Under the pieces are notes generated by a model. That model did not search any database and was not told where the DNA came from. It was given only the letters and a program-made list of their open reading frames with translations. 61,758 nucleotides of DNA from Verrucomicrobiota bacterium (GTDB taxonomy: Bacteria; Verrucomicrobiota; Verrucomicrobiia; Limisphaerales; UBA9464): assembly GCA_025363585.1 (NCBI GenBank), contig JANYDN010000315.1:1-61758 (forward strand), given 5' to 3'. Every line of letters begins with the position of its first letter. Within the stretch, counting starts at the first letter, position 1. Positions 3,366 through 29,775 of this stretch are shown piece after piece. The position numbers were made by a program, and so were the translations under genes.

Positions 3366-3826
3366 CCGGAGAACGCGGCGTGCCATCGCACCCTTTCCCG
3401 GGTGCGAAGCCCTTTTGAGCACCCACAATGCAAATATTTTCGCAAGAATCCGACGCTTTCCATTGTATTGCGTGCTAGCAGTTTGCGTCGTTTGTCAGGA
3501 TTCGGATGACACCGGGTCTAGAAAAAGCACGGCAAAGGTTTCAGTGGAATCGGGCGTGACGGAACAGGTACATGATGCGTGTCCCATAAGGATGGTCACT
3601 GCCGAAGTGGTCGAGACCGCGGTGTTCGTTCCCCCCAGGGCCGACAAGCCCAGAACGAGCGCCCGGCGAGACGCGAGGCAGGGATCCCGCCCCAAGGAAG
3701 GTCGGACCGAGTTCCCCCAATTCCCGCCGACGCGGGAAGATTCGGACCGGATTTCCGCAAGGCGGCGACAGCAACACAGCCGGAAGTTTCCCCCGGGGAA
3801 GCAGCCGGCGGACGAATAGAAAAGCA

Positions 3827-14271: not shown

Positions 14272-15594
14272 ATGGCATCCTTTCATTACCGCGCGATGCA
14301 GCCCAACGGCTCGGTCGCCGAGGGACAACTCGACGCCGGCAACCGTGCCGAGGCCCTTCGCCTGATCGAGGCCAAGGGACTCCGCCCGATCCGCCTCAAC
14401 GAAAACGGCGTCGCCGCCGCGTCGGGCCCCTCCCGTCCCGCCGCGCGTCGCGAATCGGCGGCACCCGCCAAGACGGCGGCGAAAGCAGTGGCGAAGGATT
14501 CGGCGAAGGAAACGCCGGGCGGCGTGGGTCCGCTCAAACTGGGGTTGGGCCAGGGCAAGATCACTCCCCGCATTCTCGAGAATTTCACGCGGCTACTCGC
14601 GAGCCTCCTCGCGGCGGGCGTGCCGCTGAGCCGCGCGCTGGTGATCCTCCAGCGCGAGGCGGCGAATCCCGCGGCGCGCGCCCAGTGGAAGGAAATCCAC
14701 GATCTCGTCGTCGACGGACTCGCGCTCGCGGACGCGATGGGCCGGTCGCCGTCGACGTTTCCCAAGGTCTACGTGGCGATGGTGGAGGCGGGAGAGGCGG
14801 GCGGGTTCCTGGATTTGGTGCTCGGCCAGATCGCCGACTTCCAGGCGCGCGAGAAGGAGATGCGGGCGAAGGCGACCGCGGCGCTGATGTACCCGGTGAT
14901 CCTGGCGGTGCTCGCGATCGGTGTCCTCGTCTTCCTTCTCGTGTTCTTCATCCCGAGGTTCCAGTTGATCTTCGCGAGCTTCGGCGCGGAGTTGCCGTTG
15001 ATCACGCGGATCATCATCGGCGTGAGCGAGGTGCTTCGTGGCTACGGGTTGCTGATTTTGGGGGCGTTCGTGGTCGCCGCGTTCCTGCTCCGGACGTGGT
15101 TGACGTCGGCGGCGGGTCGACGCGTGTGGGAGGGACAGATTCTGCGCGCGCCGGCGGTCGGGCCGCTGATCGCCCAGTTCGCGATGTCCCGCTTTTGCCG
15201 CATGCTCGGCACCCTGCTGGGTGCCGGCGTGCCGCTCGTCAACAGCCTCAACGTCGCCCGCCGCTCGATCGGCAACCAGATCCTCGTCGACGCGGTGTCG
15301 AATTCCATCGAGCGCGTGAAGGAGGGCAAGGCGCTCGGGCCGAGTCTCGGCGGCTGCCGCGCGTTGTTCTCGGGCTCGACGTTGGAAATGATTTCCGTCG
15401 CGGAGGAGAGCGGGAAGCTGGACCGCGAACTCGTGCGGTTGGCGAACACCACCGAGGGAGAGCTCGACCAACAATTGAAGATCGTCGTGGCTCTGGCCGA
15501 GCCGATCATGCTTTTCCTCATCGCCGGCTTCATCGGCGTGATTTTCATCGGCATGCTGCTTCCCATCTTCTCCCTTCAGGACCACATCAAGTGA
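14272..15594 (+). CDS. gspF: Type II secretion inner-membrane platform protein
   Basis: Start MASFHYRAMQ at 14272. Two T2SSF repeats separated by TM helices. It has an unusual Ala/Pro-rich insert after the first helical bundle. Confidence 0.85.
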   Translation: MASFHYRAMQPNGSVAEGQLDAGNRAEALRLIEAKGLRPIRLNENGVAAASGPSRPAARRESAAPAKTAAKAVAKDSAKETPGGVGPLKLGLGQGKITPRILENFTRLLASLLAAGVPLSRALVILQREAANPAARAQWKEIHDLVVDGLALADAMGRSPSTFPKVYVAMVEAGEAGGFLDLVLGQIADFQAREKEMRAKATAALMYPVILAVLAIGVLVFLLVFFIPRFQLIFASFGAELPLITRIIIGVSEVLRGYGLLILGAFVVAAFLLRTWLTSAAGRRVWEGQILRAPAVGPLIAQFAMSRFCRMLGTLLGAGVPLVNSLNVARRSIGNQILVDAVSNSIERVKEGKALGPSLGGCRALFSGSTLEMISVAEESGKLDRELVRLANTTEGELDQQLKIVVALAEPIMLFLIAGFIGVIFIGMLLPIFSLQDHIK

Positions 15595-15614: not shown

Positions 15615-16070
15615 ATGAGAACGAACCGAATCCACTCGGCCGGGCGGCAGCGTCGCGGCGGCTTCACGCTCATCGAGCTCCTGCTGGTGCTCGTCATCCT
15701 CGGCATCCTCGCGGCCGTCGTGTTGCCCAAATTCGCCAACCGCGGCGAACAGGCGCGCCAGGCCGCGGCGGCGACGCAGATCTCCAACTTCAGCACGGCG
15801 CTCGACGCGTTCGAGGTCGACACCGGTCGTTTTCCGCACGGCAAGAATGGCCTGCAGGACCTCTTCGTCATGCCGCGCGACGCCCAGAATTGGCGCGGAC
15901 CGTACATGAAGGACGCGCTGCCCAAGGATCCCTGGGGCAACGAGTACGTGTACGAGTGCCCCGGCAAACACAACCCCAGCGGCTACGACCTGTATTCCAT
16001 GGGCCTCGATGCCCGCGCCGGGACCGAAGACGATGTCACCAACTGGCAAAACCAGAACCAGAAGCGCTGA
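15615..16070 (+). CDS. gspG: Major pseudopilin
   Basis: Prepilin leader ending RRG|GFTLIELLLVLVILGILAAVV. GspG-type core: RGPYM, DPWGNEY.Y..PG, YDLYS.G.D. Confidence 0.85.
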   Translation: MRTNRIHSAGRQRRGGFTLIELLLVLVILGILAAVVLPKFANRGEQARQAAAATQISNFSTALDAFEVDTGRFPHGKNGLQDLFVMPRDAQNWRGPYMKDALPKDPWGNEYVYECPGKHNPSGYDLYSMGLDARAGTEDDVTNWQNQNQKR

Positions 16071-16650
16071 CGCGCGCGGCCGCGCCGGGTTCACGCTCAT
16101 CGAGCTGATCCTGGTGATGGCCGTGCTCGCCATCGTCCTCATGATCATGGCGCCGTCCCTCGGGAATTTTTTCCGGGGCCGGACGCTGGATTCCGAGGCG
16201 CGCCGGTTCGTGTCGTTGACCCGCTACGCGGAAAGCCGCGCGGTGTCCGAAGGTTCCCCCATGTTGCTTTGGATCGATCCCCAACTGCGCGCCTACGGGC
16301 TCGCCGAGGAACTCAGTTTCTCCGGCGGCGGCAGCGGAGCGCAGGCGGATCCGCATGCGGTCGAGTACAGCGTGGGACGCGAGGTGATGATGGATATCGT
16401 GGCGCCCGTCTCCGCGGCGGCGCGACGCGAGCAGGCGCAGAACGGCGCGCGCCTCGGGCGCAACGCCACGGTCATCCGTTTCCAGCCGGACGGATTCATG
16501 GGCGAGGGCGGGCCCGACGCGATTGCTTTCCGGCCGGACCCCGCCACCGGCCGCAGGGTCGATCCCTACGACGCCGTGTGGGTCGCCAAGACCTACAACC
16601 AACTCCACTATGAAATTCCCACGAACCAACTCGTCTACGTGCGCCGCTGA
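16033..16650 (+). CDS. Minor pseudopilin, GspH-like
   Basis: Prepilin motif RAGFTLIELILVMAVLAI. About 200 aa. Second pseudopilin position in the operon. The start is uncertain (16009 or 16033) and overlaps the gspG end. Confidence 0.6.
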   Translation: MSPTGKTRTRSADARGRAGFTLIELILVMAVLAIVLMIMAPSLGNFFRGRTLDSEARRFVSLTRYAESRAVSEGSPMLLWIDPQLRAYGLAEELSFSGGGSGAQADPHAVEYSVGREVMMDIVAPVSAAARREQAQNGARLGRNATVIRFQPDGFMGEGGPDAIAFRPDPATGRRVDPYDAVWVAKTYNQLHYEIPTNQLVYVRR

Positions 16651-17071
16651 CGGCGCGCGCGGCGTGGCTCGGCGGTTTTTCGCCCTGTCGCCGCGTCGGC
16701 CGCTTGCCGTTCGCGCCGCGGGCTTCACGCTCATCGAGGCGATCGCGGCAATGATGTTTCTCGCGATTGTCATCCCGGTGGCCGTGCAGGGACTGCAGAT
16801 CGCCAGCCGCGCGGGAACGGTGGCGCTGCGCAAGAGCGAGGCGGTCCACGTCGCCGACCATCTGCTCGGCGAGATGGTCGCGACGGGCCAGTGGAAGCTG
16901 TCGGGCGGCGGCACGGTGCGGGAAGGCATCCATGAATACCGTTGGAAAGTGGAATCCCGGGCCTGGGAGAAAGATGCGTTGAAACTGGTTTCGCTGCAGG
17001 TGGTCTACAGCGTTCAGAACCGCGACTACGATGTCCGGGTGAGCACGTTGCTCGACCCGAACCAGCAGTGA
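16610..17071 (+). CDS. Minor pseudopilin, GspI-like
   Basis: AAGFTLIEAIAAMMFLAIV prepilin motif with a small globular domain. Start is ATG 16610 or GTG 16664. Confidence 0.6.
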   Translation: MKFPRTNSSTCAADGARGVARRFFALSPRRPLAVRAAGFTLIEAIAAMMFLAIVIPVAVQGLQIASRAGTVALRKSEAVHVADHLLGEMVATGQWKLSGGGTVREGIHEYRWKVESRAWEKDALKLVSLQVVYSVQNRDYDVRVSTLLDPNQQ

Positions 17072-17093: not shown

Positions 17094-17864
17094 ATGAACG
17101 CCGTGCCGCCCACCACCCGATCCTCCGGAATCCCGGCGGCGGCGTGGCGTCGCGGGCCGGCCGGCCAGGCGTTCACTCTGATCGAATTGCTGCTGGCGAT
17201 CGCGATTTTCTCGTTGGTTCTCAGCGCCATCAGCGGCGTTTTCTACGGCGCGATGCGGTTGCGGACGCGCACGAGCGAGGCCATCGAGGAGGCCCTGCCG
17301 GTCCAGCGCGCGCTCGCGATCCTCCGCAAGGACCTCGCGGGCATCGTCCTTCCCCGCGGAACCATCCAGAGCAATCTCGTGGTGGCGGCGGGTTCGGGCG
17401 AGGGCTCGGTGCAGGACTCCGACACCGCCATCTACACCTCGAGCGCCGCGGTTTCGCCGAACCTGCCGTGGGGCGAGGTCCAGCGGGTTTGGTACGGACT
17501 GCGCCCGCCGACCAACGCGTACGCGTCGTATGGGAAGGATCTCGTCCGCTTCGTGGTGCGCAACCCGCTGCCGGTGCTCCAGGACGACGTCGACGAGCAG
17601 CACATTCTCGGCGGCGTCCTTCGCCTGGAGTTTTCCTTCTACGACGGCACGACCTGGCAGACCTCGTGGAACACGTCCAACCAGACGGCCGTCCTGCCCG
17701 CGGCCGTGAAGGTCCTGCTCACGATGGCGGACAATCCCGCCCGCCGCGTCCCGGGCGCTTCCACCGGCCCCGGGCAGGCCCCGTTCCAAGTGGTCGTTCC
17801 CATCCTGCTCGGCGCGACGAACGCCGCCAGCACGACGGACTCGACCGGGGGAGGGCAGCCGTGA
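17094..17864 (+). CDS. Minor pseudopilin, GspJ-like
   Basis: GQAFTLIELLLAIAIFSLV prepilin motif. About 250 aa. Position before gspK. Confidence 0.6.
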   Translation: MNAVPPTTRSSGIPAAAWRRGPAGQAFTLIELLLAIAIFSLVLSAISGVFYGAMRLRTRTSEAIEEALPVQRALAILRKDLAGIVLPRGTIQSNLVVAAGSGEGSVQDSDTAIYTSSAAVSPNLPWGEVQRVWYGLRPPTNAYASYGKDLVRFVVRNPLPVLQDDVDEQHILGGVLRLEFSFYDGTTWQTSWNTSNQTAVLPAAVKVLLTMADNPARRVPGASTGPGQAPFQVVVPILLGATNAASTTDSTGGGQP

Positions 17865-19273
17865 GGATCCGCTTCCCCAATCCCCGCGCCGAGCGCGATG
17901 GCACGGCGTTGGTCATCGTGATGTGGATCGCGTTGGGCTTGGTGAGCATCGCGCTCTACTTCGGCAATTCGTGCGCGCTCGAGCTCAAGGCGGCGGACAA
18001 TCGCGTCGCGGCGGTCGAGGCGGAACACGCGCTGGACGGCGCCGCCCGGTACGCGATGTACGTGCTCACCAACACCGACCAACCCGGCGTCCTTCCCGAC
18101 CCGGTCACCTACCTGCGCGAGTCGGTTCCCGTCGGCGAGGCCCGGTTCTGGTTCGTCGGGCGCGACACCCGGTCGTCCCAGCCCGCGCCGGAGAAGGCGT
18201 TCTTCGGACTCGTCGACGAGTGTTCGAAACTGAATCTCAACACCGCCACCCTGGCGATGCTCACCAATCTCCCGCGCATGTCGCCGGAGCTCGCGGCCGC
18301 GATCATCGACTGGCGCGACACCGACAGCAACGTCACCGACGGTGGCGCGGAGGACGACACCTACGCGCGGTTGAATCCGCCGTACCATTGCAAGAACGCG
18401 CCGTTCGACAGCGTCGAGGAACTCCGCTTCGTGGCGGGCGCCGACATGGACGTGCTGTTCGGCGAGGACACCAATTTGAACGGCGTGCTGGACGCGAACG
18501 AAAACGACGGCCAATCGACGCTGCCGCTCGACAACCGCGACGGCCGGCTCGATCCGGGAATCCTCGAGTACCTCACCGTGTACAGCGCGCAGCCGACGAC
18601 GTTGCCGGACGGCACGGCGATGGTGAACGTCGGCGGCGCGAACGCGCTGCAAAGCGTCGCGTCGCTGCTCGGGGATCGGCTCGGCACGGACCGTTCGAAC
18701 CAGATCCTGCGGAACCTCGGCGGCGGCGGCGGTGGAGGTGGAGGTGGGGGCGGCGGCAACACGACGACGTTCCGCAGCGTCCTGGAGTTCTACATCCGGA
18801 GCCAGATGACCGCGAACGAGTTCAGCCAGATCGAGACGAACCTCGTCGCGACGGCCGCCGCGCAACCGGGCCAGACCGCGACCGCAAACAGTCCCGTGAA
18901 CGTCAACACCGCGAGCGAGGCCGTCCTGACCTGCATCCCTGGCATCGGGCTCGACTACGCCTCGCAGGTCGTGCAGTTCCGGCAGGCCAATTCCGACCGA
19001 CTCAACACCGTCGCGTGGGTCTCGGAAATCCTGCCCCGCGCCAACGCGATCCAGGCGGGTCCGTACCTGACCGGCCGCAGCTACCAGTTTACCGCCGACG
19101 TCGTTGCCACCGGCCATCTCGGCCGCGGGTACCGCCGCGCGCGCTACGTGATCGACATCTCCGGCAAGACCGCGCGGATCGTCGCGCGCCGGGATCTCAG
19201 CCATCTGGGCTGGGCACTTGGGCGCGAGGCCCGCGATCAACAACGGCTTTTGCTTACCCAGAACCAACGATGA
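17861..19273 (+). CDS. gspK: GspK-like minor pseudopilin
   Basis: GTGA overlap with the preceding stop. N-terminal TM GTALVIVMWIALGLVSIAL without a conserved Glu5. Helix-hairpin-helix-like NVNTASEAVLTCIPGIG and LNLNTATLAML, typical of GspK. Contains 13 consecutive Gly. Confidence 0.7.
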   Translation: MRIRFPNPRAERDGTALVIVMWIALGLVSIALYFGNSCALELKAADNRVAAVEAEHALDGAARYAMYVLTNTDQPGVLPDPVTYLRESVPVGEARFWFVGRDTRSSQPAPEKAFFGLVDECSKLNLNTATLAMLTNLPRMSPELAAAIIDWRDTDSNVTDGGAEDDTYARLNPPYHCKNAPFDSVEELRFVAGADMDVLFGEDTNLNGVLDANENDGQSTLPLDNRDGRLDPGILEYLTVYSAQPTTLPDGTAMVNVGGANALQSVASLLGDRLGTDRSNQILRNLGGGGGGGGGGGGGNTTTFRSVLEFYIRSQMTANEFSQIETNLVATAAAQPGQTATANSPVNVNTASEAVLTCIPGIGLDYASQVVQFRQANSDRLNTVAWVSEILPRANAIQAGPYLTGRSYQFTADVVATGHLGRGYRRARYVIDISGKTARIVARRDLSHLGWALGREARDQQRLLLTQNQR

Positions 19274-20709
19274 AGTCCTGGCCCCCCATGAAACGCCACC
19301 CCGCGGTGCTCGGCCTCGCCCTCGATGGCCGCCGTGCCGAGGCGTTGGTCGTGCGCCGCACCAATGGCTCCGTCGAGGCGGGCGACACGGTGTCGTTCGT
19401 TTTTTCCGCCGACCTCGCCACGGGCGACGTCGCGGTGCTCGGCGCGGAATTGCGCGCGCAACTCGACGCGGCCGGCATTCGCGAACGGCGTTGCGTGGTC
19501 GGGCTACCGCTCGATTGGGTGATGTCGATTTCCACGCCGTTGCCCGAGCTGCCCGAGGACGACATCGCCGCGATGCTCCAGCTCGAGGCCGAGCGCGGGT
19601 TCCCGTATTCGCCGGACGACCTGATGATCGCGCAGTCACGCTACGGGGCGCAGCCGGGTGGAGCGGGCGCGCTCCAGCTCGCGGTCGCGCTCGAACGCGT
19701 CGATCGCATCGAGCAAATCCTCCGCGCCGCGAAACTCACCGCGGTGTCCTTCACCCTCGCGTTCCCGATCCTCGCGGTGGCCTCGGCCGGATCCGCGGAC
19801 CGCGCCGTGACGCTCGCCGTCGGCGAGACCAGCGTCGCGGTGGCCATCGGCAGCGGCAAGGGGTTCGCCGCGTTGCGCACCATCGCCGGCGCGCTCGATG
19901 CCTCGGGCACCGCGCCCCTCGCGAAGGCCGACGTGGTCGCCCGCGAACTGCGCGTCACGCTCGGGCAAGTCGACGCCGGCCTGCGCGCGCGCATCGAGCG
20001 CCTGCGCATCGTGGGTGCCGGCCCGGCGGCGGATCGCCTCGCGTCGGAATTGCAGTCGAGGGCCGTCGCGCTCGGACTGGTGGTGGAACGCGTGACCGCC
20101 CCGAACCCCGCGGCGCTCGGCCTCGGGGTGCCCCCGGGCAAGGCGCTGTCGGGCGCGTTGGTCGTGGCGACCCGCCATCTCGCGGTGCAGAAGGCGGAAC
20201 TCGAATTCCTGCCGCCGCGCCTTTCGGCCTGGCAACAGTTCACGTCGCGCCATTCGTCCAAGCAACTGGCCTACGTGGGCATGGTCGCCGGCGTCGTCGC
20301 GTTCCTCGTGCTGGTGGCCTTCGCATACCAGCAGGTCCAACTCGCCAGCCTCGGCACCGAGTGGAAGGGAATGGAGAAACGGGTCGAGAACGTCACCAAC
20401 CTCAAGACGCAGATCCGGCGTTTCCGGCCTTGGTACGACGAGTCGTTCCGCACCCTCGGCGTGCTGCGGCGCGTCACCGAGGCTTTCCCCGAGGACAGCT
20501 CGGTCACCGCCAAGACCATCGAGTTCCGCGAGGCCGGGCTGGTCGTTTGCTCCGGAACCGCGCGCGACAGCGCCGCGTTGCTCAAGACGCTCGACAAGCT
20601 GCGCTCGACGACGGGCATCTCCGAGGTCCAGGTCGAGCAGGTCCGCGGGAAGTCCCCGCAGCAATTCACCTTCAATCTCCGCTGGGACAGCCTCGTACGG
20701 CAGCCATGA
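19270..20709 (+). CDS. GspL / PilM-PilN-like fusion assembly protein
   Basis: ATGA overlap with the gspK stop. Cytoplasmic actin-like domain. Single TM LAYVGMVAGVVAFLVLVAFAY. Periplasmic PilN/GspL-like ferredoxin-type domain. Confidence 0.6.
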   Translation: MKSWPPMKRHPAVLGLALDGRRAEALVVRRTNGSVEAGDTVSFVFSADLATGDVAVLGAELRAQLDAAGIRERRCVVGLPLDWVMSISTPLPELPEDDIAAMLQLEAERGFPYSPDDLMIAQSRYGAQPGGAGALQLAVALERVDRIEQILRAAKLTAVSFTLAFPILAVASAGSADRAVTLAVGETSVAVAIGSGKGFAALRTIAGALDASGTAPLAKADVVARELRVTLGQVDAGLRARIERLRIVGAGPAADRLASELQSRAVALGLVVERVTAPNPAALGLGVPPGKALSGALVVATRHLAVQKAELEFLPPRLSAWQQFTSRHSSKQLAYVGMVAGVVAFLVLVAFAYQQVQLASLGTEWKGMEKRVENVTNLKTQIRRFRPWYDESFRTLGVLRRVTEAFPEDSSVTAKTIEFREAGLVVCSGTARDSAALLKTLDKLRSTTGISEVQVEQVRGKSPQQFTFNLRWDSLVRQP

Positions 20710-21245
20710 AAATCGACTTTCGCAATCGACAGCATCTCCTCCTCTTTTTGGTCGGGGTGCTCGCCGCGTACTGGATCAGCGACAAGGTGATCATCGGGCC
20801 GCTGACCAAGACTTGGGGCGCGCGGTCGGACCGGATCAAGGAGCTGCGCACGCGCATTGCCCAGGGCAAGGAGTCGCTGAACCGCGAACGGGTCATCGTC
20901 GCCGATTGGGAACGCATGCGGACCAATGCCCTTCCTGGCGTCGTCTCTTCCGCCGAGGGCACCGTCCTCCGCGCCTTCGACCGGTGGTCGGCCGAAAGCC
21001 GCATCAGCGTCACGTCCGTGAAGCCCCAGTGGAAACATCCCGAGGACGACTACATGACCCTCGAGTGCCGCGTCGACGCCAACGGTAGCCTGTCGGCGCT
21101 GTCGCGATTCCTGTACGAGGTGGAGGCGGATCCCCTCGGCGTGCGCATCGATTCGCTCGAGCTGAGCACCCGGGAGAGCGACGGCTCGCAGTTGACGCTC
21201 GCGTTGACCGTGAATGGCCTTTATCTGAACCCGCCCCCCCAATGA
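20706..21245 (+). CDS. GspM / PilO-like assembly protein
   Basis: ATGA overlap. N-terminal TM LLLFLVGVLAAYWI. Coiled segment plus a small periplasmic domain. Operon position. Confidence 0.55.
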   Translation: MKIDFRNRQHLLLFLVGVLAAYWISDKVIIGPLTKTWGARSDRIKELRTRIAQGKESLNRERVIVADWERMRTNALPGVVSSAEGTVLRAFDRWSAESRISVTSVKPQWKHPEDDYMTLECRVDANGSLSALSRFLYEVEADPLGVRIDSLELSTRESDGSQLTLALTVNGLYLNPPPQ

Positions 21246-22066
21246 CGCTTTTCCCAGCCAAAGCCCGTTTCCTGCTGGCCGCCGCGATGGTCGCGTCGTG
21301 CGTCGCGAGCGCCGCCGAGACCAACGCGCCCCCGACCGCTTCCGCGACCAACGAGTCGGGAACCAACGCGCCGGCGGCGTCCACCACGGCGACGAACGCG
21401 CCCCCCGTGGAGTCGACGGCCGAGAAGTCGCCGGAAACGTCCGTGGAGGACAAGCCCGCCGTGGCAACCGAGGTTTCCACCAATGCCCCGGCGGCCCCGG
21501 CGCCCACCCGGATATCCGGGAAGAAGGTGGAGTTCGCCGAGTTCCGGCTCATCGGCGACCGCAATATTTTCAACCCGAACCGTTCCCCGCGTTCCAATCG
21601 CGGTGGACGCGGCGGCCCCGAGCGCAAGCCCGTCAAGATCGAGACCTTCACCCTCGTCGGGCTCATGACGTACGACCGCGGCGACGTGGCGTATTTCGAC
21701 AGTTCCGCGTCGGCTTTCCGCAAAAGCGTCCGGACCAATGACACGATCGCGGGCTATCGCGTGACCTCGCTGACGCCGACCGAGGCGAAGCTCGAGGCGG
21801 ATGGCAAGACGATCGTCGCCCACGTGGGCACGAAATTCCGGAGGACCGATGGCGGGCCGTGGGAGACGGCCGCGGCGGGCGGGACATTTTCAGTGGAGCC
21901 GAAGCCGGAAACGGCGTCGGCGGATGGATCGAAGGACGTGGAGCCGTCTTCGGACGACGCCACGGACAAGGAAACTTCGGGTGGAGGATCGGGCGGCGCC
22001 GTCAACGACGTGCTGAAGCGCCTGATGCAAAAGCGTGAACAGGAGACCAAGAATGAAAAACAATAG
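21242..22066 (+). CDS. GspC / PilP-like periplasmic secretin-interacting protein
   Basis: ATGA overlap. Signal peptide. Low-complexity T/A/P-rich linker. C-terminal beta domain FTLVGLMTYDRGDVAYFD...IAGYRVTSLTPTEAKLE. Position immediately before the secretin. Confidence 0.5.
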   Translation: MTLFPAKARFLLAAAMVASCVASAAETNAPPTASATNESGTNAPAASTTATNAPPVESTAEKSPETSVEDKPAVATEVSTNAPAAPAPTRISGKKVEFAEFRLIGDRNIFNPNRSPRSNRGGRGGPERKPVKIETFTLVGLMTYDRGDVAYFDSSASAFRKSVRTNDTIAGYRVTSLTPTEAKLEADGKTIVAHVGTKFRRTDGGPWETAAAGGTFSVEPKPETASADGSKDVEPSSDDATDKETSGGGSGGAVNDVLKRLMQKREQETKNEKQ

Positions 22067-23711
22067 TCGCCGAATCTGGCCAGTCTGCGTGTTGGCCGGA
22101 ATGCTCGCGTGGGGTGGCCTGCGCGCGGAGGACGAGCCGGTGGCCAAGGCCGCCGCCGATGCCGCCGTCGCACCCGCGCCCGCGCCCGAAACTCCAGCGG
22201 AGACCACCGCGGCACCCGTCGAGGCGCCGCCCGCGTCGAAGAGCATCCGGCTCAATTTCCGCAACGCGCCGATCGAGATGGTTCTCAACCATCTCAGCGA
22301 GGCCGCGGGATACATCATCCTCCTCGACACCGAGGTCCGCGGGAAGATCGACGTGTGGAGCAACCAGCCCGTCACCGGCGACGAGGCGGTCGGGATCCTT
22401 GAAACGGTCCTGAGCAAGAACGGCTATATCCTGCTCCACAACGGCCGCACGCTCCACGTCATCAGCAAGGACAACGCGGCCCGCAAGCCCATCCCCGTCA
22501 AGGTTGGCACCAATTTCAAGCAGATCCCGCAGAACGAGGAGATGGTCACGCAGATTCTTCCCATCCGCTACATCAGCGCCACGGGTCTCACCCAAAACCT
22601 CCAGCCGCTCCTCTCGTCGGACGCCTCGATGACCGCCAACGACGCCGGCAATGCGCTGATCCTCACGGACACCCAGGTCAACATCCACCGCATCGCAGAG
22701 ATCATCACCGCGCTCGACACGTCGGGCAGCGGTTCGACGACGATCAAGGTGTTCAAGCTCAATTTCGCCGATGCGAAGGAACTCGCCGCCGTGGTAAAGG
22801 AACTTTACCCGGTGACCGCGAACGCCGGTGGTGGCGGTGGCGGCGGGAACAATGGCGGCAACAACAATAACGGCAACCGTTTTGGCGGTGGTGGCGGAGG
22901 GTTTCCCGGCGGCGGTGGTGGATTCCCCGGTGGGGGCGGTGGCGGCGGCGGACAAGGTGGCGGCGGTGCCGGCGGCGGCCGCGGCGGTGGAGCGGGCAAT
23001 GGCTCGCGCGCCGCGTCGGCACGCGTCACGGCGGTCGCGGATGAGCACAGCAATTCGCTCGTCGTGAACGCGCCCGACGACGTCATGCCGTCGATCGAGG
23101 AACTCGTGAGGAGCGTCGACACCAACATCCAGGACGTGACCGAGCTCCGCGTGTTCCCCCTCCGTTACGCGGATCCCGGCGAGATGGCGGACCTCCTCGG
23201 CAGCCTCTTTCCCGACGACACGCGCGCCAATGACAACACCCGCGGCCAACAGGTCCGGTTCGGCGGCGGGTTCGGTGGATTCGGCGGCGGCGGTGCCGCG
23301 CGCACCGGGGCGGCATCCGGAACCGACAGCCAGCTCTCCAAGAAAAAGGGCCGGGTGCTCGCGGTCGCCGACCGGCGCACCAGCTCGGTCATCGTCAGCG
23401 CGGCGCACGACCTGATGAGCCAGATCGGCGAGATGGTCGCGAAGCTGGATTCCAACCCGGCGCGCAAACAAAAGGTCTACGTGTACGACCTTGAGAACGC
23501 CGATCCGACCCAGGTCCAGGAAGTCCTGAACAACCTTTTCGTCTCCCAGACGTCCAACCGCAGCCAGCGCTCGACGGCCAACCAGAACAGCGCGTTGTCC
23601 ACGCGCCAGACCCAGCAGACCCAAAACTCCGGCAGGACGAGTGGCAGCGGGTTTGGCAGTACTGGCGGAGGCGGAGGCGCGGGCGGCGGAGGCGTCGGCC
23701 GCGGCAACTGA
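22053..23711 (+). CDS. Secretin N-terminal half: N0 plus repeated N-domains, no pore domain
   Basis: Signal peptide MKNNSRRIWPVCVLAGMLAWGGLRA. N0-like FRNAPIEMVLNHLSEAAGY. Three complete ring-building N-domains with Gly-rich loops. A fourth first-half KVYVYDLENADPTQVQEVLNNLF is followed by a Q/S/G-rich tail and the stop at 23709-23711. Confidence 0.75.
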   Translation: MKNNSRRIWPVCVLAGMLAWGGLRAEDEPVAKAAADAAVAPAPAPETPAETTAAPVEAPPASKSIRLNFRNAPIEMVLNHLSEAAGYIILLDTEVRGKIDVWSNQPVTGDEAVGILETVLSKNGYILLHNGRTLHVISKDNAARKPIPVKVGTNFKQIPQNEEMVTQILPIRYISATGLTQNLQPLLSSDASMTANDAGNALILTDTQVNIHRIAEIITALDTSGSGSTTIKVFKLNFADAKELAAVVKELYPVTANAGGGGGGGNNGGNNNNGNRFGGGGGGFPGGGGGFPGGGGGGGGQGGGGAGGGRGGGAGNGSRAASARVTAVADEHSNSLVVNAPDDVMPSIEELVRSVDTNIQDVTELRVFPLRYADPGEMADLLGSLFPDDTRANDNTRGQQVRFGGGFGGFGGGGAARTGAASGTDSQLSKKKGRVLAVADRRTSSVIVSAAHDLMSQIGEMVAKLDSNPARKQKVYVYDLENADPTQVQEVLNNLFVSQTSNRSQRSTANQNSALSTRQTQQTQNSGRTSGSGFGSTGGGGGAGGGGVGRGN

Positions 23712-23752
23712 TCCAACCAACCTTCATGTCCAATCTTCAGGGAAACCCAACC

Positions 23753-24994
23753 ATGAGATTCAATACCCGACCCCGTTCGGCCGCGCCGATCGCGTTGTGT
23801 CTGGCCGCGCTCGCGGCCGTGCCGGCCTTCGGCCAGGGCAACTTCGGCGGTGGCGCCGGCGGTGGTTTCGGCGGCGGCGGCGGCGGCGGTGGCGGCAACC
23901 GCGCCGGTTCCGGCGGCACCACCCGCCAGTATCCGAACAACACCCAGGTCGGCGACGCCATGATCTCGATCGATCCGGAAACCCGGAAGATCATCGTCAT
24001 CACCGACGACGAGACCAACGTCCAGATCGGCGACGTGATCAAGAGCCTCGATCACCCGCGCCCGCAGGTCCTCATCAAGGTCGTGTTCCTCGAGATCACC
24101 CACAACAATGGCTCGGACATCGGTGTCGAGGGTGGATGGACCAAGGGCGTCGGCGGCGGCAACACGCCGAGTGTCGGCAACGTTTTCGGCCTCTCCGGCC
24201 TCAACAACGCCGCGTCCAACAACATCCTCAACTCGCTCGGCCAGCCGATCTCCAGCTTCAGCCCGACGCCTCCCGGCGCCGGCCTTTACCAGATGCTTGG
24301 CTCCGACTACCAGGTCGCCCTCCGAGCCATCGCGACGGCCGGCAAAGCCGAGATCCTTTCTCGCCCGTCGATCCTCGCCCGGAACAACCAGCCGGCCACC
24401 ATCTCGCTCGGCCAGCAGGTGCCGTTGGTCAGCAACACCCGCTTCGACGCGGTCAACGGCCAGATCAACACCGTCACCTACCAGAGCGTCGGCATCATCC
24501 TCCGCGTCACCCCGTTCATTGGCAGCGATGGCATGGTCGAGATGATCGTCTCGCCCGAGACGTCCTCGCTCGCCGACAAGTCGTTCTGGGTGCCGATATC
24601 GAAGGACGCCCTCGCGCCGGTCATCAACTCGCGCGTCGCCGACACCGTCGTCGTGGTGCCCGACGGCCAGACCGTGATCATCGGCGGCCTGATGTCGAAC
24701 GAGGTGACCGAGTCCGAAAGCAAGATCCCGTTGCTGGGCGACATCCCGTGGATCGGGAACGCCTTCAAGCGAAAGCAAAAGCAGAACACGAAGACCGAGC
24801 TGATGATTTTCCTCACCCCGCACGTCGTGGCCGCGCCTGGCCAACTTGCCAACCTCACGGCCGAGGAACGCGCGAAGGGGACGCTCAAGATGAACTCGAT
24901 GAGCGAGCAGCAGCTCGACAAGTTCCTCGAGACGATCCCGCTGAAGGGCGATCCCAACGCCGTGGATCCCGACAAGAAGAAGAAAAAGAAGTAG
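23753..24994 (+). CDS. Secretin C-terminal half: second half of an N-domain plus the secretin pore domain
   Basis: Own signal peptide MRFNTRPRSAAPIALCLAALAAVPAFG|Q. Gly-rich tract, then AMISIDPETRKIIVITDDETNVQIGDVIKSLD. Secretin motifs ILSRPSILARNNQPATISLGQQVP, VVVVPDGQTVIIGGL, KIPLLGDIPWIGNAFK and TELMIFLTPHVV. The alternative start is 23726. Confidence 0.8.
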   Translation: MRFNTRPRSAAPIALCLAALAAVPAFGQGNFGGGAGGGFGGGGGGGGGNRAGSGGTTRQYPNNTQVGDAMISIDPETRKIIVITDDETNVQIGDVIKSLDHPRPQVLIKVVFLEITHNNGSDIGVEGGWTKGVGGGNTPSVGNVFGLSGLNNAASNNILNSLGQPISSFSPTPPGAGLYQMLGSDYQVALRAIATAGKAEILSRPSILARNNQPATISLGQQVPLVSNTRFDAVNGQINTVTYQSVGIILRVTPFIGSDGMVEMIVSPETSSLADKSFWVPISKDALAPVINSRVADTVVVVPDGQTVIIGGLMSNEVTESESKIPLLGDIPWIGNAFKRKQKQNTKTELMIFLTPHVVAAPGQLANLTAEERAKGTLKMNSMSEQQLDKFLETIPLKGDPNAVDPDKKKKKK

Positions 24995-25012
24995 CCAGTC
25001 GGCCGGCCGGAG

Positions 25013-25056
25013 CCCCGTTGCCGCGAGTTTCACGCGGCGGCGGGGTTTTTCATTTT
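25013..25056 (+). terminator. Rho-independent terminator of the secretion operon
   Basis: 13-bp stem ccccgttgccgcg / cgcggcggcgggg (two G-U pairs), 7-nt loop, then tttttcatttt. Begins 19 nt after the secretin stop. Confidence 0.75.
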
Positions 25057-25128: not shown

Positions 25129-25204
25129 GAGACGGTGGAAAGAAGCGATGCAGCTCCCCGAAAGCAACGCAGGCGAGGACGCCCGCGGCGGCGCGCCGAG
25201 GAAT

Positions 25205-25345
25205 GGCAGCATGATGTAGAGCGGCCGTCCCCGGCTGCGCAGAAAAGCACCGTCCCCGGTGCGTCTCGTCTTGCCGCGACTTGCGGGGCACGGGCGAGGA
25301 CGCCCGTGATCTGCGCAGGCGGGGACGCCCGCTCTACGCCGCGCC
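25205..25345. repeat. REP-like element, family A, inverted orientation
   Basis: ctgcgcagaaaagcaccgtccccggtgcgtctcgtcttgccgcgacttgcggggcac is the reverse complement (few mismatches) of the unit at 29672-29728. It is followed by gcaggcggggacgcccgctctacgccg. Confidence 0.75.
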
Positions 25346-25423: not shown

Positions 25424-28108
25424 ATGAAGTGGCGTCGCTCCAGTATTGCGCGCGTTTTGGCGCTCGCCCTTGCGGCGGCCGCGTTCTTCCCCGCGCTCGG
25501 CGGCGACCCCACCAACCACTGGGCCTACCGTCCCATCGTTCGTCCCGCCGTGCCCGCGGCCGACGCTCCCAGCGGGAATCCCATCGATGCCTTCGTGCGC
25601 GCGCGACTCGGATCCCGCGGTCTCTCGCCCGCGCCCGGGGCGGATCGTCGGACCTTGGTGCGCCGCGTGTTTCTCGATCTGGTCGGATTGCCGCCATCCC
25701 CCGAGGAGTCGGACGCGTTCGTCGCCGATGACCGGCCCGACGCATTCGGCGAACTCGTGGATCGTCTCCTCGCCTCGCCGCGCCACGGCGAGCGGTGGGC
25801 ACGGCATTGGATCGACGCCGCGCACTTCGCGGAGACGCACGGGCACGACCAGGACCGCATCCGCACGCACGCGTGGCCGTACCGCGACTATCTCGTCGGC
25901 GCGTTCAACGACGACAAACCCTACGACCGCTTCGTCCGCGAACAGGTGGCCGGCGACGTCCTGTATCCGGACGATCCGGCCGCGACCGTCGCGCTTGGCT
26001 TTCTGGCGTCCGGTCCGTGGGACGAAAGCTCCCTGCGTGACATCCGTGAGGACACCGTGGACCGGCAGATCGGACGGTATCTCGACCGGGACGACGTCGT
26101 GACGACCGTGATGCAGACGTTTGCGAGCATCACCGTCCAGTGCGCGCGCTGCCACGACCACAAGTTCGACCCGATTCCGCAGCGTGACTACTACGCGTTG
26201 CAGGCGGTGTTCGCCGGCGTCGACCGCGCGGACCGCGCGTGGGACGCGGATCCGGCCGTGCACCGGAAACGTCAGGAACTCTTCGCGCTTCGAAGGCGGT
26301 TGGGACGCGGCGATCCATCGCTCGTGCTGTCGGCGCAATCCAAACGCGAGGCCACGGAGTGGATCCGCGCCACCGGCGCGCGCCCGATTTCGTGGCGCGT
26401 CTTCGGGCCGCGGACATTCGTCTCGACCGGCGGCGCGACGCTGGCGTTGAACGAAGACGGGTCGGTGTCGTCCGCGGGGAAACGTCCGGACCGCGACACG
26501 ACCACGTTTTCGGGCCCGCCGGCATTGGACGAAATCACCGCGGTACGGCTCGAGGTGTTGCCCGACGACGCGTTGCCGAAACACGGGCCGGGCCGGAACG
26601 AGAACGGGAATTTCCATCTCAGCGAATTCCAACTGCTGATCTTCGAGCCCGGCGTCGCGAAGGCACGCGTCGTCGAGCTCGCGAATCCCACGTCGGATTT
26701 CGACCAGGACGGCTGGGGCATCGCGCGTGCCCTCGACGGCGACGAGAAGACCGCGTGGGGAATCCATCCGCGCGAGGGCGAGGCGCACGAGGCGATCTTC
26801 GAATTGAAGGCGCCGCTTCGTGCGGCCGCGGGTTCGACGCTCGTCTTCGTCCTCAAGCAACTCCACGGGGACGGGCACGTGATCGGGCGCGCGCGTCTCT
26901 CCGTCACCGACGCGCCGCTTCCCATCCGAATCCTTCCGCCGGTGATTCGCGAGGCCGTCGCCGTCGACGCGGGCCAACGCACCGACGCGCAGTGGACCGC
27001 GCTCGCACGACATGTGGTCGGCGGGAGCATCGAGAAGGACCTCGCCGCGTTGCCCGCGCCGTCGATGGTTTACGCCGCGGCCGCGGACTTCGAACCCGAC
27101 GGCGGATTGAAGCCGTCGGGCGCGCCGCGGATGGTGCGGGTATTGCATCGCGGCGACATCGGCAAACCGCGCGAGGACGCCTCGCCGGGAGCGCTTGGAT
27201 GCGTCGCCGCGTTGCCGTCGCGGTTCGAGGTGGATCCGGGCGCGGAGGAAGGAGCGCGCCGCGCGGCGTTGGCCGACTGGCTCTCCGACCGCGAGAACCC
27301 GCTGGTCTGGCGCTCGATCGTCAACCGCGTCTGGCGCCTGCATTTCGGGCGCGGCCTCGTCGAGACGCCGAACGACTTCGGCAAGATGGGCGACGCGCCG
27401 TCGCATCCGGAACTTTTGGATTGGCTGGCCGCGTGGTTCCGCGACGACGCCCACGGGTCGTTGAAGCAATTGCACCGGTTGATCGTGACCAGCGCGACGT
27501 ACCGCCAGCGTTGCGTCGCCGAGGATCCACATGGGGTGGCGGCGATCGATCCCGACAACCGTTTGCTCTCGCACATGAACCGCGCGCGGCTCGATGCCGA
27601 ACAGGTGCGCGACGGGATCCTGCAGGCGTCGGGCCGGCTCGATCTGCGGATGGGAGGACCGGGCGACCGCCAGTTCGATCTGCAGCCTGGCATCCACGTG
27701 ACGCCGCGGGTCGACTACACGAAGTTCGACGTCGACGCCGACGCGGGCCGGCGGCGCGGCATCTACCGTTTTCTGTTCCGGACGTTGCCCGATCCGTTCA
27801 TGGACGCGCTGGATTGTCCCGCGGGCGACCAACTCACGCCGGTGCGCGGCGCGGGGGTCACGGTGCAGCAGGCGCTGGCGCTGTGGAACGACGTGTTCGT
27901 GACGCGCCACGCCGAGCACCTTGCGCGACGCATCGAGGGCGAACGCGCCGGACCCGAGGCACGCATCGCGCGCGCGTTCGAGCTGTTGCTGCAACGCCCG
28001 CCCACGTCCGCGGAATCCACGGAGTTCGTCGGGTACGCGAACCGGCACGGCCTGGCGAACGGATGCCGGCTGTTGCTGAACTCCAACGAATTCATGTTCG
28101 TGAACTGA
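25424..28108 (+). CDS. DUF1549/DUF1553 (PSD1-type) domain protein
   Basis: Signal peptide. DUF1549 motifs IDAFVRARL and RRV.LDL.GLPP...E..AF. A central discoidin-like segment. DUF1553 motifs NPL..R..VNR.W...FG.G.V....DFG..G..PSHPELLDWLA. Confidence 0.85.
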   Translation: MKWRRSSIARVLALALAAAAFFPALGGDPTNHWAYRPIVRPAVPAADAPSGNPIDAFVRARLGSRGLSPAPGADRRTLVRRVFLDLVGLPPSPEESDAFVADDRPDAFGELVDRLLASPRHGERWARHWIDAAHFAETHGHDQDRIRTHAWPYRDYLVGAFNDDKPYDRFVREQVAGDVLYPDDPAATVALGFLASGPWDESSLRDIREDTVDRQIGRYLDRDDVVTTVMQTFASITVQCARCHDHKFDPIPQRDYYALQAVFAGVDRADRAWDADPAVHRKRQELFALRRRLGRGDPSLVLSAQSKREATEWIRATGARPISWRVFGPRTFVSTGGATLALNEDGSVSSAGKRPDRDTTTFSGPPALDEITAVRLEVLPDDALPKHGPGRNENGNFHLSEFQLLIFEPGVAKARVVELANPTSDFDQDGWGIARALDGDEKTAWGIHPREGEAHEAIFELKAPLRAAAGSTLVFVLKQLHGDGHVIGRARLSVTDAPLPIRILPPVIREAVAVDAGQRTDAQWTALARHVVGGSIEKDLAALPAPSMVYAAAADFEPDGGLKPSGAPRMVRVLHRGDIGKPREDASPGALGCVAALPSRFEVDPGAEEGARRAALADWLSDRENPLVWRSIVNRVWRLHFGRGLVETPNDFGKMGDAPSHPELLDWLAAWFRDDAHGSLKQLHRLIVTSATYRQRCVAEDPHGVAAIDPDNRLLSHMNRARLDAEQVRDGILQASGRLDLRMGGPGDRQFDLQPGIHVTPRVDYTKFDVDADAGRRRGIYRFLFRTLPDPFMDALDCPAGDQLTPVRGAGVTVQQALALWNDVFVTRHAEHLARRIEGERAGPEARIARAFELLLQRPPTSAESTEFVGYANRHGLANGCRLLLNSNEFMFVN

Positions 28109-28118
28109 AGGGAGCCCA

Positions 28119-29600
28119 ATGCCGATGCCATCGATCCAACGGATTTCGGAAAGTCGACGCTCGTTCCTGTGGCGCACGGGCGGCGGGTTGGGCGGCGTGG
28201 CGCTGGCGCAACTGCTCGGCGCGGGTCGGACGCTGGGCGCGGACGCCCCGGGTTCCGTCGCGGCGGCGATTCCCGACGGCCTGCGGCATCATCCGGTGCG
28301 TGCCAAGCGCGTCATCCAGTTGTTCATGAACGGCGGCGCGAGCCAGATGGATCTCTTCGACCACAAGCCCGAGTTGTTCCGCCGGCACGGCGAGAAGTTC
28401 GATCCCGGCAACGGCGAACACGTGGAAGCCGCCACCAGCGAGCCCGGGAAAATCCTGAAGCCGCCGTACGAGATGCGGCGCCACGGACAAAGCGGGCGTT
28501 GGGTTTCGGACCTGATGCCCAACCTCGCGCGCCACGTCGACGACCTCGCGTTCTTCATGGCGATGTCGTCCCGGACCAATGTCCACGGGCCCGGAAGCTT
28601 CCTCATGAACACCGGCTTCCTCCTTCCGGGGTTCCCGAGTTTTGGTTCGTGGGTGAGCTACGCGTTGGGAAGCGAGTCGGACAATCTCCCGTCGTTCGTG
28701 GTGCTGCCGGACGCGCGCGGGTTGCCGTACAACCAGAAGGGCAATTTCTCCGCCGGGTTTCTCCCCGTGCAACACCAAGGGACGATCATCCAGTCGCGTC
28801 CGGCGGCCGGCGACGTGCCCGCGGAATTCGTCTTCGGCGATCTCCGGCCACCGCCGTCGGCGCGCTACATCACGTCGGCGTCGTCGGGCGAGGGACTCGA
28901 TTTGCTCGGCCGCTTCAACCGTGCACACCAGTCGGAGAACGCGGATGACCCGCGGCTGGAGGCGCGGATCCGGGCCTACGAACTCGCGGCGAAGATGCAG
29001 CTCAGCGCGCCCGAGGTTCTCGATCTTTCGGGCGAGAGCGACGCGACGCGGCGGCTCTACGGCGTCGATGGACCGGTCACCGGGGATTTCGGGCGGCGTT
29101 GCCTGTTGGCGCGGCGGTTGGTGGAACGCGGCGTGCGGTGCGTGCAGGTTTGGAGCGGCGCGGGCGGCCCGACGAACAACTGGGACAACCACGCGAACAT
29201 CGCGAAGGAACTCCCGCCGATGTGCGCGGCGACGGACCAACCGGTCGCGGCGTTGCTGTCGGATTTGAACGCGCGCGGGATGCTCGAGGACACGCTGGTG
29301 TTGTGGAACACGGAGTTCGGCCGGATGCCCTTCTCGCAAAGCGGCGACGGCCGCGACCACAACGGCGGGACGTTCGTGGGATGGATGGCGGGCGCGGGCG
29401 TGCGGCCCGGCGTGGCGTATGGGTCGAGCGACGACTGGTCGTGGAAAGCGGCCCAGGACGTGACGACGACGTACGACTTCCACGCGACCGTGCTGCACCT
29501 TCTGGGCATGGACCACCACCGCCTGGTGTACCGGCACGGCGGCGCGGACCGCCGTTTGACGGACGTGCACGGCGAGGTCGTGCGCGCGGTGCTGGCGTAG
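28119..29600 (+). CDS. DUF1501 (sulfatase-fold) protein, Tat-exported
   Basis: Twin-arginine leader SRRSFLWRTGGGLGGVALAQLLGA. DUF1501 motifs FMNGG.SQ.D.FD.KP, WD.H and GRDHN..GF. Canonical partner of the preceding gene. Confidence 0.85.
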   Translation: MPMPSIQRISESRRSFLWRTGGGLGGVALAQLLGAGRTLGADAPGSVAAAIPDGLRHHPVRAKRVIQLFMNGGASQMDLFDHKPELFRRHGEKFDPGNGEHVEAATSEPGKILKPPYEMRRHGQSGRWVSDLMPNLARHVDDLAFFMAMSSRTNVHGPGSFLMNTGFLLPGFPSFGSWVSYALGSESDNLPSFVVLPDARGLPYNQKGNFSAGFLPVQHQGTIIQSRPAAGDVPAEFVFGDLRPPPSARYITSASSGEGLDLLGRFNRAHQSENADDPRLEARIRAYELAAKMQLSAPEVLDLSGESDATRRLYGVDGPVTGDFGRRCLLARRLVERGVRCVQVWSGAGGPTNNWDNHANIAKELPPMCAATDQPVAALLSDLNARGMLEDTLVLWNTEFGRMPFSQSGDGRDHNGGTFVGWMAGAGVRPGVAYGSSDDWSWKAAQDVTTTYDFHATVLHLLGMDHHRLVYRHGGADRRLTDVHGEVVRAVLA

Positions 29601-29775
29601 AGCGGGCGTCCTCGCCTGCGCAAATCACGGGCGTCCTCGCCTTCGCCGGGCTTCGGCGGAGCAAGCCCGCCCGTGCCCCGCGGGTCGCGACAATACGAGA
29701 CGCACCGGGGACGGTGCTTTTTTGCGCAGGCGAGACGCCCGCGACTACCGCAGGCGAGGACGCCCGCGCCACATC
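29598..29775. repeat. REP-like element, family A, with an embedded terminator-like hairpin
   Basis: gtagagcgggcgtcctcgcctgcgca...cgtgccccgcgggtcgcgacaatacgagacgcaccggggacggtgcttttttgcgcaggcgagacgcccgcgactaccgcaggcgaggacgcccgcgc. Hairpin gcaccg-ggga-cggtgc + tttttt at 29702-29723. Confidence 0.8.

Follow-up and report, generated by a model that had tools for sequence, protein, structure and literature searches.

Background

Secretins are the giant gates in the outer membrane that serve type II and III secretion, type IV pili and the export of filamentous phage. To our knowledge, their assembly has been studied only with single chains. The stretch of DNA analysed here, which we call the window, comprises 61,758 nt of a genome assigned to the Verrucomicrobiota (GenBank assembly GCA_025363585.1, contig JANYDN010000315.1, positions 1 to 61,758 of the forward strand), and in it two neighbouring open reading frames (ORFs), designated ORF A and ORF B, carry between them the parts of a GspD-type secretin, the outer-membrane component of the type II secretion system (T2SS). 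ORF A stops in the middle of a domain of which ORF B holds the other half, and the locus raises the question of whether the two products are pieces of one working gate or two proteins that have gone separate ways.

The original prediction, made from the sequence alone, held that a secretin gene had been fissioned inside a disordered loop of its last N-domain, that the second piece had gained an export signal, and that the interrupted domain would have to be reconstituted in trans in the periplasm. Here we report a computational analysis of these claims, based on family models, solved structures, relatives of both halves and structure prediction. We consider it probable that ORF A and ORF B make up a working two-chain GspD secretin, which closes a complete gsp operon in a verrucomicrobium of the Pedosphaera/Limisphaerales type.

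Results

One GspD on two reading frames

On the GspD family model TIGR02517, ORF A occupies positions 1-284 (224.3 bits) and ORF B positions 279-600 (249.0 bits), which makes for a clean, colinear cut such as chance would by no means produce. Together the two ORFs offer an N0 domain, repeated Secretin_N domains, a pore domain and core T2SS genes as neighbours, and what they do not offer is a single polypeptide above the TIGR02517 cut-off. Their domain order (N0, Secretin_N repeats, pore) and the kind of gsp operon in which they lie are those of single-chain GspD (GspD/PulD/XcpQ; TIGR02517), of which 5WQ7, 6HCG and 5WLN are solved structures and whose outer-membrane channel, a ring of roughly 15 subunits, exports folded proteins.

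The coordinates of all features are collected in Table 1. Pfam, alignments and coordinates bore out the layout first read into ORF A, namely a signal peptide, an N0 domain, three complete N-domains and then only the first half of another. PF03958 (Secretin_N) matches three stretches of ORF A (E 2.4e-36), and the limits given for N0 to N3 derive from Pfam, from alignment to the N0-N2/N3 domains of solved GspD and from secondary structure in an AlphaFold model. An Ala/Pro-rich linker separates the signal peptide from N0, and the Gly-rich loops of N2 and N3 both sit between helix α1 and strand β2. The reading of ORF B was likewise upheld: 41 nt further on, in a reading frame that differs from that of ORF A, it starts with its own signal peptide and continues through a Gly-rich tract, an orphan second half of an N-domain and the pore. 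An alternative in-frame ATG at 23726 also yields a signal peptide. The Gly-rich head of the mature protein ends in the conserved motif TRQYPNNTQV; at the other end of the chain, the tail has two predicted helices and may be S-domain-like. The best sequence and fold matches of the pore in the PDB are GspD, PulD and ExeD, and XcpQ was also matched.

The position of the break follows from alignment to GspD of E. coli K12 (5wq7_A). Residues 55-372 of ORF B align to residues 274-584 of this structure, and the half-domain at the start of that alignment, here termed N4b, falls on the second half of N3, immediately before the pore. A profile of 21 natural pairs of A tail and mature B protein also aligns in order to 5wq7_A, the A part covering residues 208-278 (N2 β2-β3-α2 and N3 β1-α1) and the B part residues 271-591, which places the break in the loop between α1 and β2 of the N-domain next to the pore. 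These alignments support the view that ORF A and ORF B represent one GspD-type secretin whose last N-domain is split within this disordered loop. The half of this domain that ends ORF A is termed N4a.

A signal peptide of its own on the second chain

The original prediction ascribed to ORF B a signal peptide of its own. We judged this with our own scan, for hydrophobicity, charge and the residues at -3 and -1, of the B proteins from 69 loci in which both genes are complete (see below). A Sec-type signal peptide was predicted on all 69, as it was on all 22 aligned B homologues. The N-terminal segment measures 22-45 residues, and the maximum Kyte-Doolittle (KD) hydropathy over 10 residues never falls below 1.89 (median 2.46). 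In 61 of the 69 proteins, one or more K or R residues stand ahead of the hydrophobic core; the -3/-1 pair reads A.A in 39, residue -1 being small in nearly all, and predicted cleavage leaves Gln as the first mature residue in 67. The sequence of these peptides varies freely while their form is constant, as is the case with functional signal peptides. A lipoprotein signal on ORF B was considered and dropped, as no conserved lipobox Cys is present. From these sequence features, the ORF B signal peptide is most likely cleaved by signal peptidase I.

Conservation of the pair and of both half-domains

In a scan that took one genome from each species, at least 558 relatives came to light, among which the best 80 loci were examined. 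The 120 top-ranking relatives of ORF B share 60-92% identity with it; all are 340-462 aa long and carry the Secretin domain, Pfam recording an additional Secretin_N match in three of them. The best 120 relatives of ORF A measure 448-590 aa and have N0 and Secretin_N, none of them with a Secretin domain; NCBI lists several under the name "secretin N-terminal domain-containing protein". Almost all of the best 80 loci belong to Verrucomicrobiota of the Pedosphaera, Limisphaerales or subdivision 3 type, and two are chromosome-level records (OZ260084.1 and OW818681.1). The relatives are thus not the Opitutales in which the original prediction had proposed to look for them.

In nearly all 80 loci an A homologue ends just 5' of B, and the two never form one open frame, so that the proposed comparison of fused with split orthologues revealed no continuous reading frame. 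Over the 69 complete pairs, between -4 and 153 nt separate the stop of A from the start of B, with a median of 27 nt. The two genes have a frame offset of 0 in 25 pairs, of +1 in 14 and of +2 in the other 30, and ATG is the start codon of B in 68. This variation in gap and offset is incompatible with a sequencing artefact common to all loci and with a conserved site of recoding. In two further loci about 800 nt lie between the A and B genes (L062, about 2769-3535; L065, 5070-5874), which implies that the pair tolerates physical separation; inspection of the stretch in L065 found no convincing gene.

Both orphan halves are well kept over the 69 pairs. N4a has the consensus NPAKKQKVxVYxLxNADPQQVQxVLxxLFE (70-90% conserved), and N4b with its lead-in reads TRQYPNNTxVGDAxISxDPETRxIIVITDEET...LDxPxPQVLIKVVFLEV (70-99% conserved), a level of conservation equal to that of the complete N3. 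The sequence record thus indicates that both half-domains are under selection. Within the otherwise variable A tail, a QNSALxxR(x)TQ motif, present in the window as QNSALSTR at 23583-23606 (ORF A aa 511-518), is 60-90% conserved across the paired loci; QNSALxxR is absent from the single-chain relatives in Phycisphaerae described below.

Some loci from metagenome-assembled genomes (MAGs) bear a mixture of labels, among them Kapaibacterium, Cyanophyceae, Methylomirabilota, Bifidobacterium, Haliangiales and Limnocylindrales, and several more are labelled Akkermansia muciniphila though they resemble environmental MAGs. These oddly labelled loci (L018, L025, L031, L043, L044, L047, L050, L055, L057, L063 and L070) are probably mis-binned or mislabelled contigs.

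The two-gene secretin is confirmed as real and as conserved across a deep verrucomicrobial clade. With at least 69 paired loci and all top relatives split, the idea of a fission in a disordered loop accompanied by a gained export signal finds support well beyond the single genome in which it was conceived.

Origin of the split

Among representatives of clusters at 50% identity, the top 36 or so matches (477 to 232 bits) are all short, each of them aligned from its N-terminus onwards. Full-length forms come in only at about 232 bits and about 40% identity, and these first ones are GspD proteins of the class Phycisphaerae of the Planctomycetota (Phycisphaerales, Tepidisphaeraceae, Humisphaera borealis). 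These proteins have the order N0-N1-N2-N3-pore, and between α1 and β2 of their N3 lies a loop of about 90-130 residues rich in Gly, Ser and Thr, which coincides with the break point of the split secretin. A chimera of the window proteins (A 61-357, A 466-552 and B 28-413) is colinear with Phycisphaerae GspD: DSNPARKQKVYVYDLENADPTQVQEVLNNLF stands over DSNPxxxxxFFIYxLKNAxAxNLQxVLNxxFG, and VGDAMISIDPETRKIIVITDD over xGQAFVVADxDTNSLLVT. According to this alignment, the split domain is orthologous to the last N-domain of the Phycisphaerae protein, and the N3 of the window is an extra one.

A neighbour-joining tree of N4b and the pore core placed 28 short representatives, all of them bearing signal peptides, in one clade with the window protein, and none of the 31 fused forms fell inside it. 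These comparisons suggest that a single old fission, within a loop that was already long and disordered, is the likely origin of the pair.

The search also met giant proteins of 3,400-5,500 aa with a secretin domain at the extreme C-terminus, 33-44% identical to ORF B (P0319, P0332, P0355, P0357, P0364-P0366, P0371, P0375, P0378, P0379, P0382 and P0386).

Modelling the divided domain

AlphaFold2 was run on a chimera from which N3 had been removed, with an alignment (A4) of single-chain relatives and B homologues, and gave a mean predicted local distance difference test (pLDDT) score of 71.5. In the model, N4a consists of strand 306-311 and helix 317-329 (pLDDT 77-91), the 90 residues of the link (333-422) stay below 50, and N4b (427-456; about 91) is a pair of strands with a helix, followed by a confidently modelled pore. 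Searched with Foldseek, the model has the overall fold of PulD, ExeD and GspD. In a control with ORF A alone (alignment A5), the helix was weaker (66-77) and β1 was not a strand (pLDDT 64). A strand is assigned by DSSP only where there is a partner strand. The presence of the β1 strand in the chimera and its absence from A alone therefore point to N4b as the possible partner. Judged by homology, neither β1-α1 nor β2-β3-α2 would be a stable fold by itself; in all solved secretins known to us they make one βαββα unit.

The shortened chimera was adopted because MAFFT kept misplacing the halves. An unpaired block-diagonal alignment of the chimera with whole A and B homologues was rejected, as the second half of N3 of the A proteins was placed onto N4b of B, and their N4a onto the start of the pore, whether or not fused relatives, A-tail fragments or extra copies of the chimera were included.

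The original prediction also called for rebuilding of the domain in trans. Colinearity with N3 of solved GspD and the contrast between the two AlphaFold runs speak for it, and from these alignments and models we infer that one N-domain is re-formed from the two chains.

Operon context

ORF A and ORF B are the last two genes of the gsp operon, with the genes for GspE, F, G, H, J, K and M lying 5' on the same strand. Directly upstream of ORF A, and overlapping its start by 14 nt, is a gene (21242-22066) whose 274-aa product carries a signal peptide and gave no family match in searches of Pfam and NCBIfam; from its position, this protein might be guessed to be a GspC/PilP-like partner. For the GspL/PilM-like protein, family searches gave only a weak PilM match. 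Both secretin ORFs show the codon-position GC pattern typical of genes, in a sequence of 67% GC. No promoter or terminator match was found in the stretch between ORF A and ORF B, and the idea of an internal signal there was dropped, as was that of a second secretin elsewhere, none being found in the 61,758 nt of the window.

Table 1. Features of the split secretin and of the surrounding gsp operon (window coordinates)
Feature	Positions	Strand	Basis or remarks
GspE	12534-14258	+	Pfam T2SSE
GspF	14272-15594	+	Pfam T2SSF
GspG	15663-16070	+	Pfam T2SSG
GspH-like	16009-16650	+	Pfam GspH
Further putative pseudopilin	16523-17071	+	Translation reading only
GspJ	17094-17864	+	Pfam T2SSJ
GspK	17921-19273	+	Pfam T2SSK
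PilM/GspL-like protein	19270-20709	+	Weak NCBIfam PilM match
GspM	20706-21245	+	NCBIfam GspM, E 5.5e-07
274-aa protein, signal peptide	21242-22066	+	Translation; directly 5' of ORF A
ORF A, N-terminal secretin chain, 552 aa	22053-23711	+	ATG 22053, TGA 23709-23711
ORF A signal peptide, MKNNSRRIWPVCVLAGMLAWGGLRA, aa 1-25	22053-22127	+	Predicted, sequence reading
N0, aa 64-142	22242-22478	+	PF21305, E 1.6e-13 (match residues 67-131)
N1, aa 164-222	22542-22718	+	Secretin_N
N2, aa 229-356	22737-23120	+	Includes 69-aa Gly/Asn loop, 22812-23018
N3, aa 362-466	23136-23450	+	Includes 45-aa loop, 23214-23348
N4a, orphan β1-α1 half of last N-domain, QKVYVYDLENADPTQVQEVLNNLF, aa 473-496	23469-23540	+	Alignment to N3 β1-α1 of 5wq7 and Phycisphaerae GspD
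Disordered Q/N/S/T/G-rich C-terminal tail of ORF A, 56 aa	23541-23708	+	pLDDT <50
ORF A TGA and 41-nt spacer (spacer 23712-23752)	23709-23752	+	AGGGAA 8 nt before ORF B ATG
ORF B, C-terminal secretin chain, 413 aa	23753-24994	+	ATG 23753, TAG 24992-24994
ORF B signal peptide, MRFNTRPRSAAPIALCLAALAAVPAFG then Q	23753-23833	+	Predicted cleavage before Q28
Gly-rich disordered head of mature ORF B, 39 residues, aa 28-66	23834-23950	+	pLDDT <50
N4b, orphan β2-β3-α2 half of last N-domain, GDAMISIDPETRKIIVITDDETNVQIGDVIKSLD, aa 67-100	23951-24052	+	Alignment to N3 β2-β3-α2 of 5wq7_A; pLDDT ~91
Secretin pore domain	24053-24829	+	PF00263, E 1.5e-49
ORF B C-terminal tail, two predicted helices and poly-Lys end	24830-24991	+	Helices at model 720-733, 742-751
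Terminator-like hairpin, 17-bp stem then T-run	25009-25049	+	Strong; closes operon just 3' of ORF B

Two observations concern the neighbourhood of the pair. GspK contains a run of 14 glycines (NLGGGGGGGGGGGGGGNTTTF; region 18361-18762), and long Gly runs also occur in ORF A, in the loops of N2 and N3, and at the head of mature ORF B; this gsp operon seems to be given to Gly-rich insertions. Beyond the operon, inverted-repeat arms at 25232-25340 and 29594-29732 (65 nt at 91% and 48 nt at 96% complementary) enclose a gene pair encoding a PSCyt2/PSD1 (DUF1549/DUF1553) and a DUF1501 protein (25424-29600). A GC-rich unit of 31 nt related to these arms recurs at 25157, 25303 and 29738, and arms and unit together may be a repeated intergenic element.

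Discussion

How a two-chain secretin could arise and work

The comparisons strongly support as ancestor a single-chain GspD of the type found in the Planctomycetes-Verrucomicrobia-Chlamydiae (PVC) group, with a very long, disordered loop rich in Gly, Ser and Asn between α1 and β2 of its pore-adjoining N-domain. It was probably cut a single time inside this loop, the first piece acquiring a stop codon at its end and the second a start codon with a Sec signal peptide at its head. Both chains would then be exported via Sec and most likely processed by signal peptidase I, chain B maturing with Gln as its first residue, and in the periplasm the C-terminal β1-α1 of chain A would pack onto β2-β3-α2 of chain B and complete one βαββα N-domain. 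Chain A would supply N0 for the inner-membrane platform together with the stacked periplasmic rings, and chain B the outer-membrane pore, the two disordered ends remaining as loose tails. As the pore-adjoining N-domain is reported to be needed for the multimerisation of single-chain GspD (PMC8134430), the split could tie assembly of the pore to docking of the periplasmic chain; that pore assembly depends on the docking of chain A is speculative.

Several points weigh against this proposal. Neither half alone reaches the equivalog cut-off of TIGR02517 (351.35 bits), and it is only jointly that they cover the model once. The loci examined are the best 80 of at least 558, and the tree is a neighbour-joining tree without support values. 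In the modelled chimera N3 was missing and the A half was aligned to single-chain relatives, so that the predicted fold is partly borrowed by homology; the predicted contact between N4a and N4b rests on a DSSP strand call and on pLDDT; and the two AlphaFold runs used different alignments, which makes them a suggestive contrast only. Finally, the conserved QNSALxxR motif plays no part in the two-chain model.

This last point leads to the alternative that survives best. Both proteins could be real and exported without any domain being rebuilt, chain A acting as a free periplasmic adaptor or ring and the half-domains being either relics or bound elsewhere, for instance by strand exchange between neighbouring subunits or to the upstream 274-aa protein. 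The conserved QNSALxxR does hint at an interaction that the two-chain model leaves unused, and RhcC1 of the rhizobial type III secretion system (T3SS) is separately regulated and may have another role (PMC3973906). A relic, however, would decay, and across the 69 loci N4a and N4b keep a conservation of 70-99%, no less than complete domains; as noted above, neither piece would be expected to be a stable fold alone, and the predicted ordering of β1 only in the presence of N4b argues in the same direction. The genes, moreover, are adjacent, co-transcribed and always paired. We therefore regard a free adaptor as unlikely, while giving it more credit than the explanations that follow.

A single chain made by programmed frameshifting or by read-through of a stop codon in the G-rich region, the two ORFs being merely apparent, would also account for the layout of the window, where the frame of ORF B is open for about 77 codons 5' of its ATG, and of the 25 loci in which A and B share a frame with a stop codon between them. 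Recoding would nevertheless call for a conserved geometry, and neither the offsets nor the gaps summarised above have one, least of all in the two loci with about 800 nt between the genes; a fused product would hold the signal peptide internally and leave the conserved AxA|Q cleavage pattern unexplained. We judge this explanation very improbable.

That the split reflects faulty assembly or sequencing, or a pseudogene that arose recently and in this genome only, might be suspected from a break in G/C-rich, low-complexity DNA prone to indel errors and from ORFs in different frames, but the chance of it is practically negligible given the same layout in independent assemblies from many studies (two of them chromosome-level), the half-length form of all top relatives of each half, the gene-like codon-position GC of both ORFs and the signal peptide on every ORF B.

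Comparison with known secretins

The original prediction was aware of no description of this architecture. Secretins on more than one polypeptide are in fact known, from the Rhc T3SS and from the mitochondrial T2SS, and are thus not new as such; a literature search of open-access papers and preprints, itself weak evidence, yielded no description of this bacterial T2SS form or of a split GspD in Verrucomicrobia or other PVC bacteria.

The closest single-chain forms, the Phycisphaerae GspD proteins such as that of Humisphaera borealis, likewise have very long loops rich in Gly and Ser and show about 40% identity to each of the halves, whereas the window form consists of two chains, has a second signal peptide and counts one N-domain more. 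In RhcC1 (NolW)/RhcC2, and also in HrcIIC1/HrcIIC2 of Pseudomonas syringae, a periplasmic part and a pore part are likewise encoded by two genes (PMC3574062, PMC3973906, PMC3459982). As Abby and Rocha showed, the Rhc split goes back to partial gene replacement, which combined the N-terminus of a T3SS secretin (RhcC1) with a Tad-type secretin carrying a BON domain (RhcC2), and the genes lie apart (PMC3459982). In contrast, both halves in the window are GspD-type, lie 41 nt apart in a gsp operon and represent the two sides of one cut domain; no BON domain was found in them by Pfam search.

The T2SS of eukaryotic mitochondria (GspD, GspDL, GspDN1-3) resembles the window form in that halves of an N-domain reside on separate polypeptides, of which GspDN3 corresponds to the N-terminal and GspDN2 to the C-terminal part only (Horvathova et al. 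2021, PMC8134430). The mitochondrial system lacks N0, has a further truncated pore part and is encoded by scattered nuclear genes whose products are targeted to mitochondria (PMC8134430), whereas the form described here is bacterial, has N0 and relies on Sec-type signal peptides. The authors of that study could not assign the mitochondrial T2SS to a donor group, and noted that one of its accessory families, Gcp16, is shared with PVC bacteria (PMC8134430). The verrucomicrobial split GspD might be the bacterial counterpart of the mitochondrial one, to which we give a slender chance; if true, the mitochondrial T2SS would have come from a PVC-related donor whose secretin was already split.

Conclusion

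Annotation pipelines name the two halves "secretin N-terminal domain-containing protein" or "hypothetical protein", each falling below the GspD cut-off, and T2SS may therefore be under-counted in Verrucomicrobiota. The pair illustrates how a domain may be cut, and a new signal peptide be born, where a long disordered loop permits it. As a two-chain gate, it would offer a natural system of periplasmic fragment complementation, in which the pore half and the vestibule half could be expressed apart, and with it a handle on how an N3-type domain drives the multimerisation and gating of secretins.

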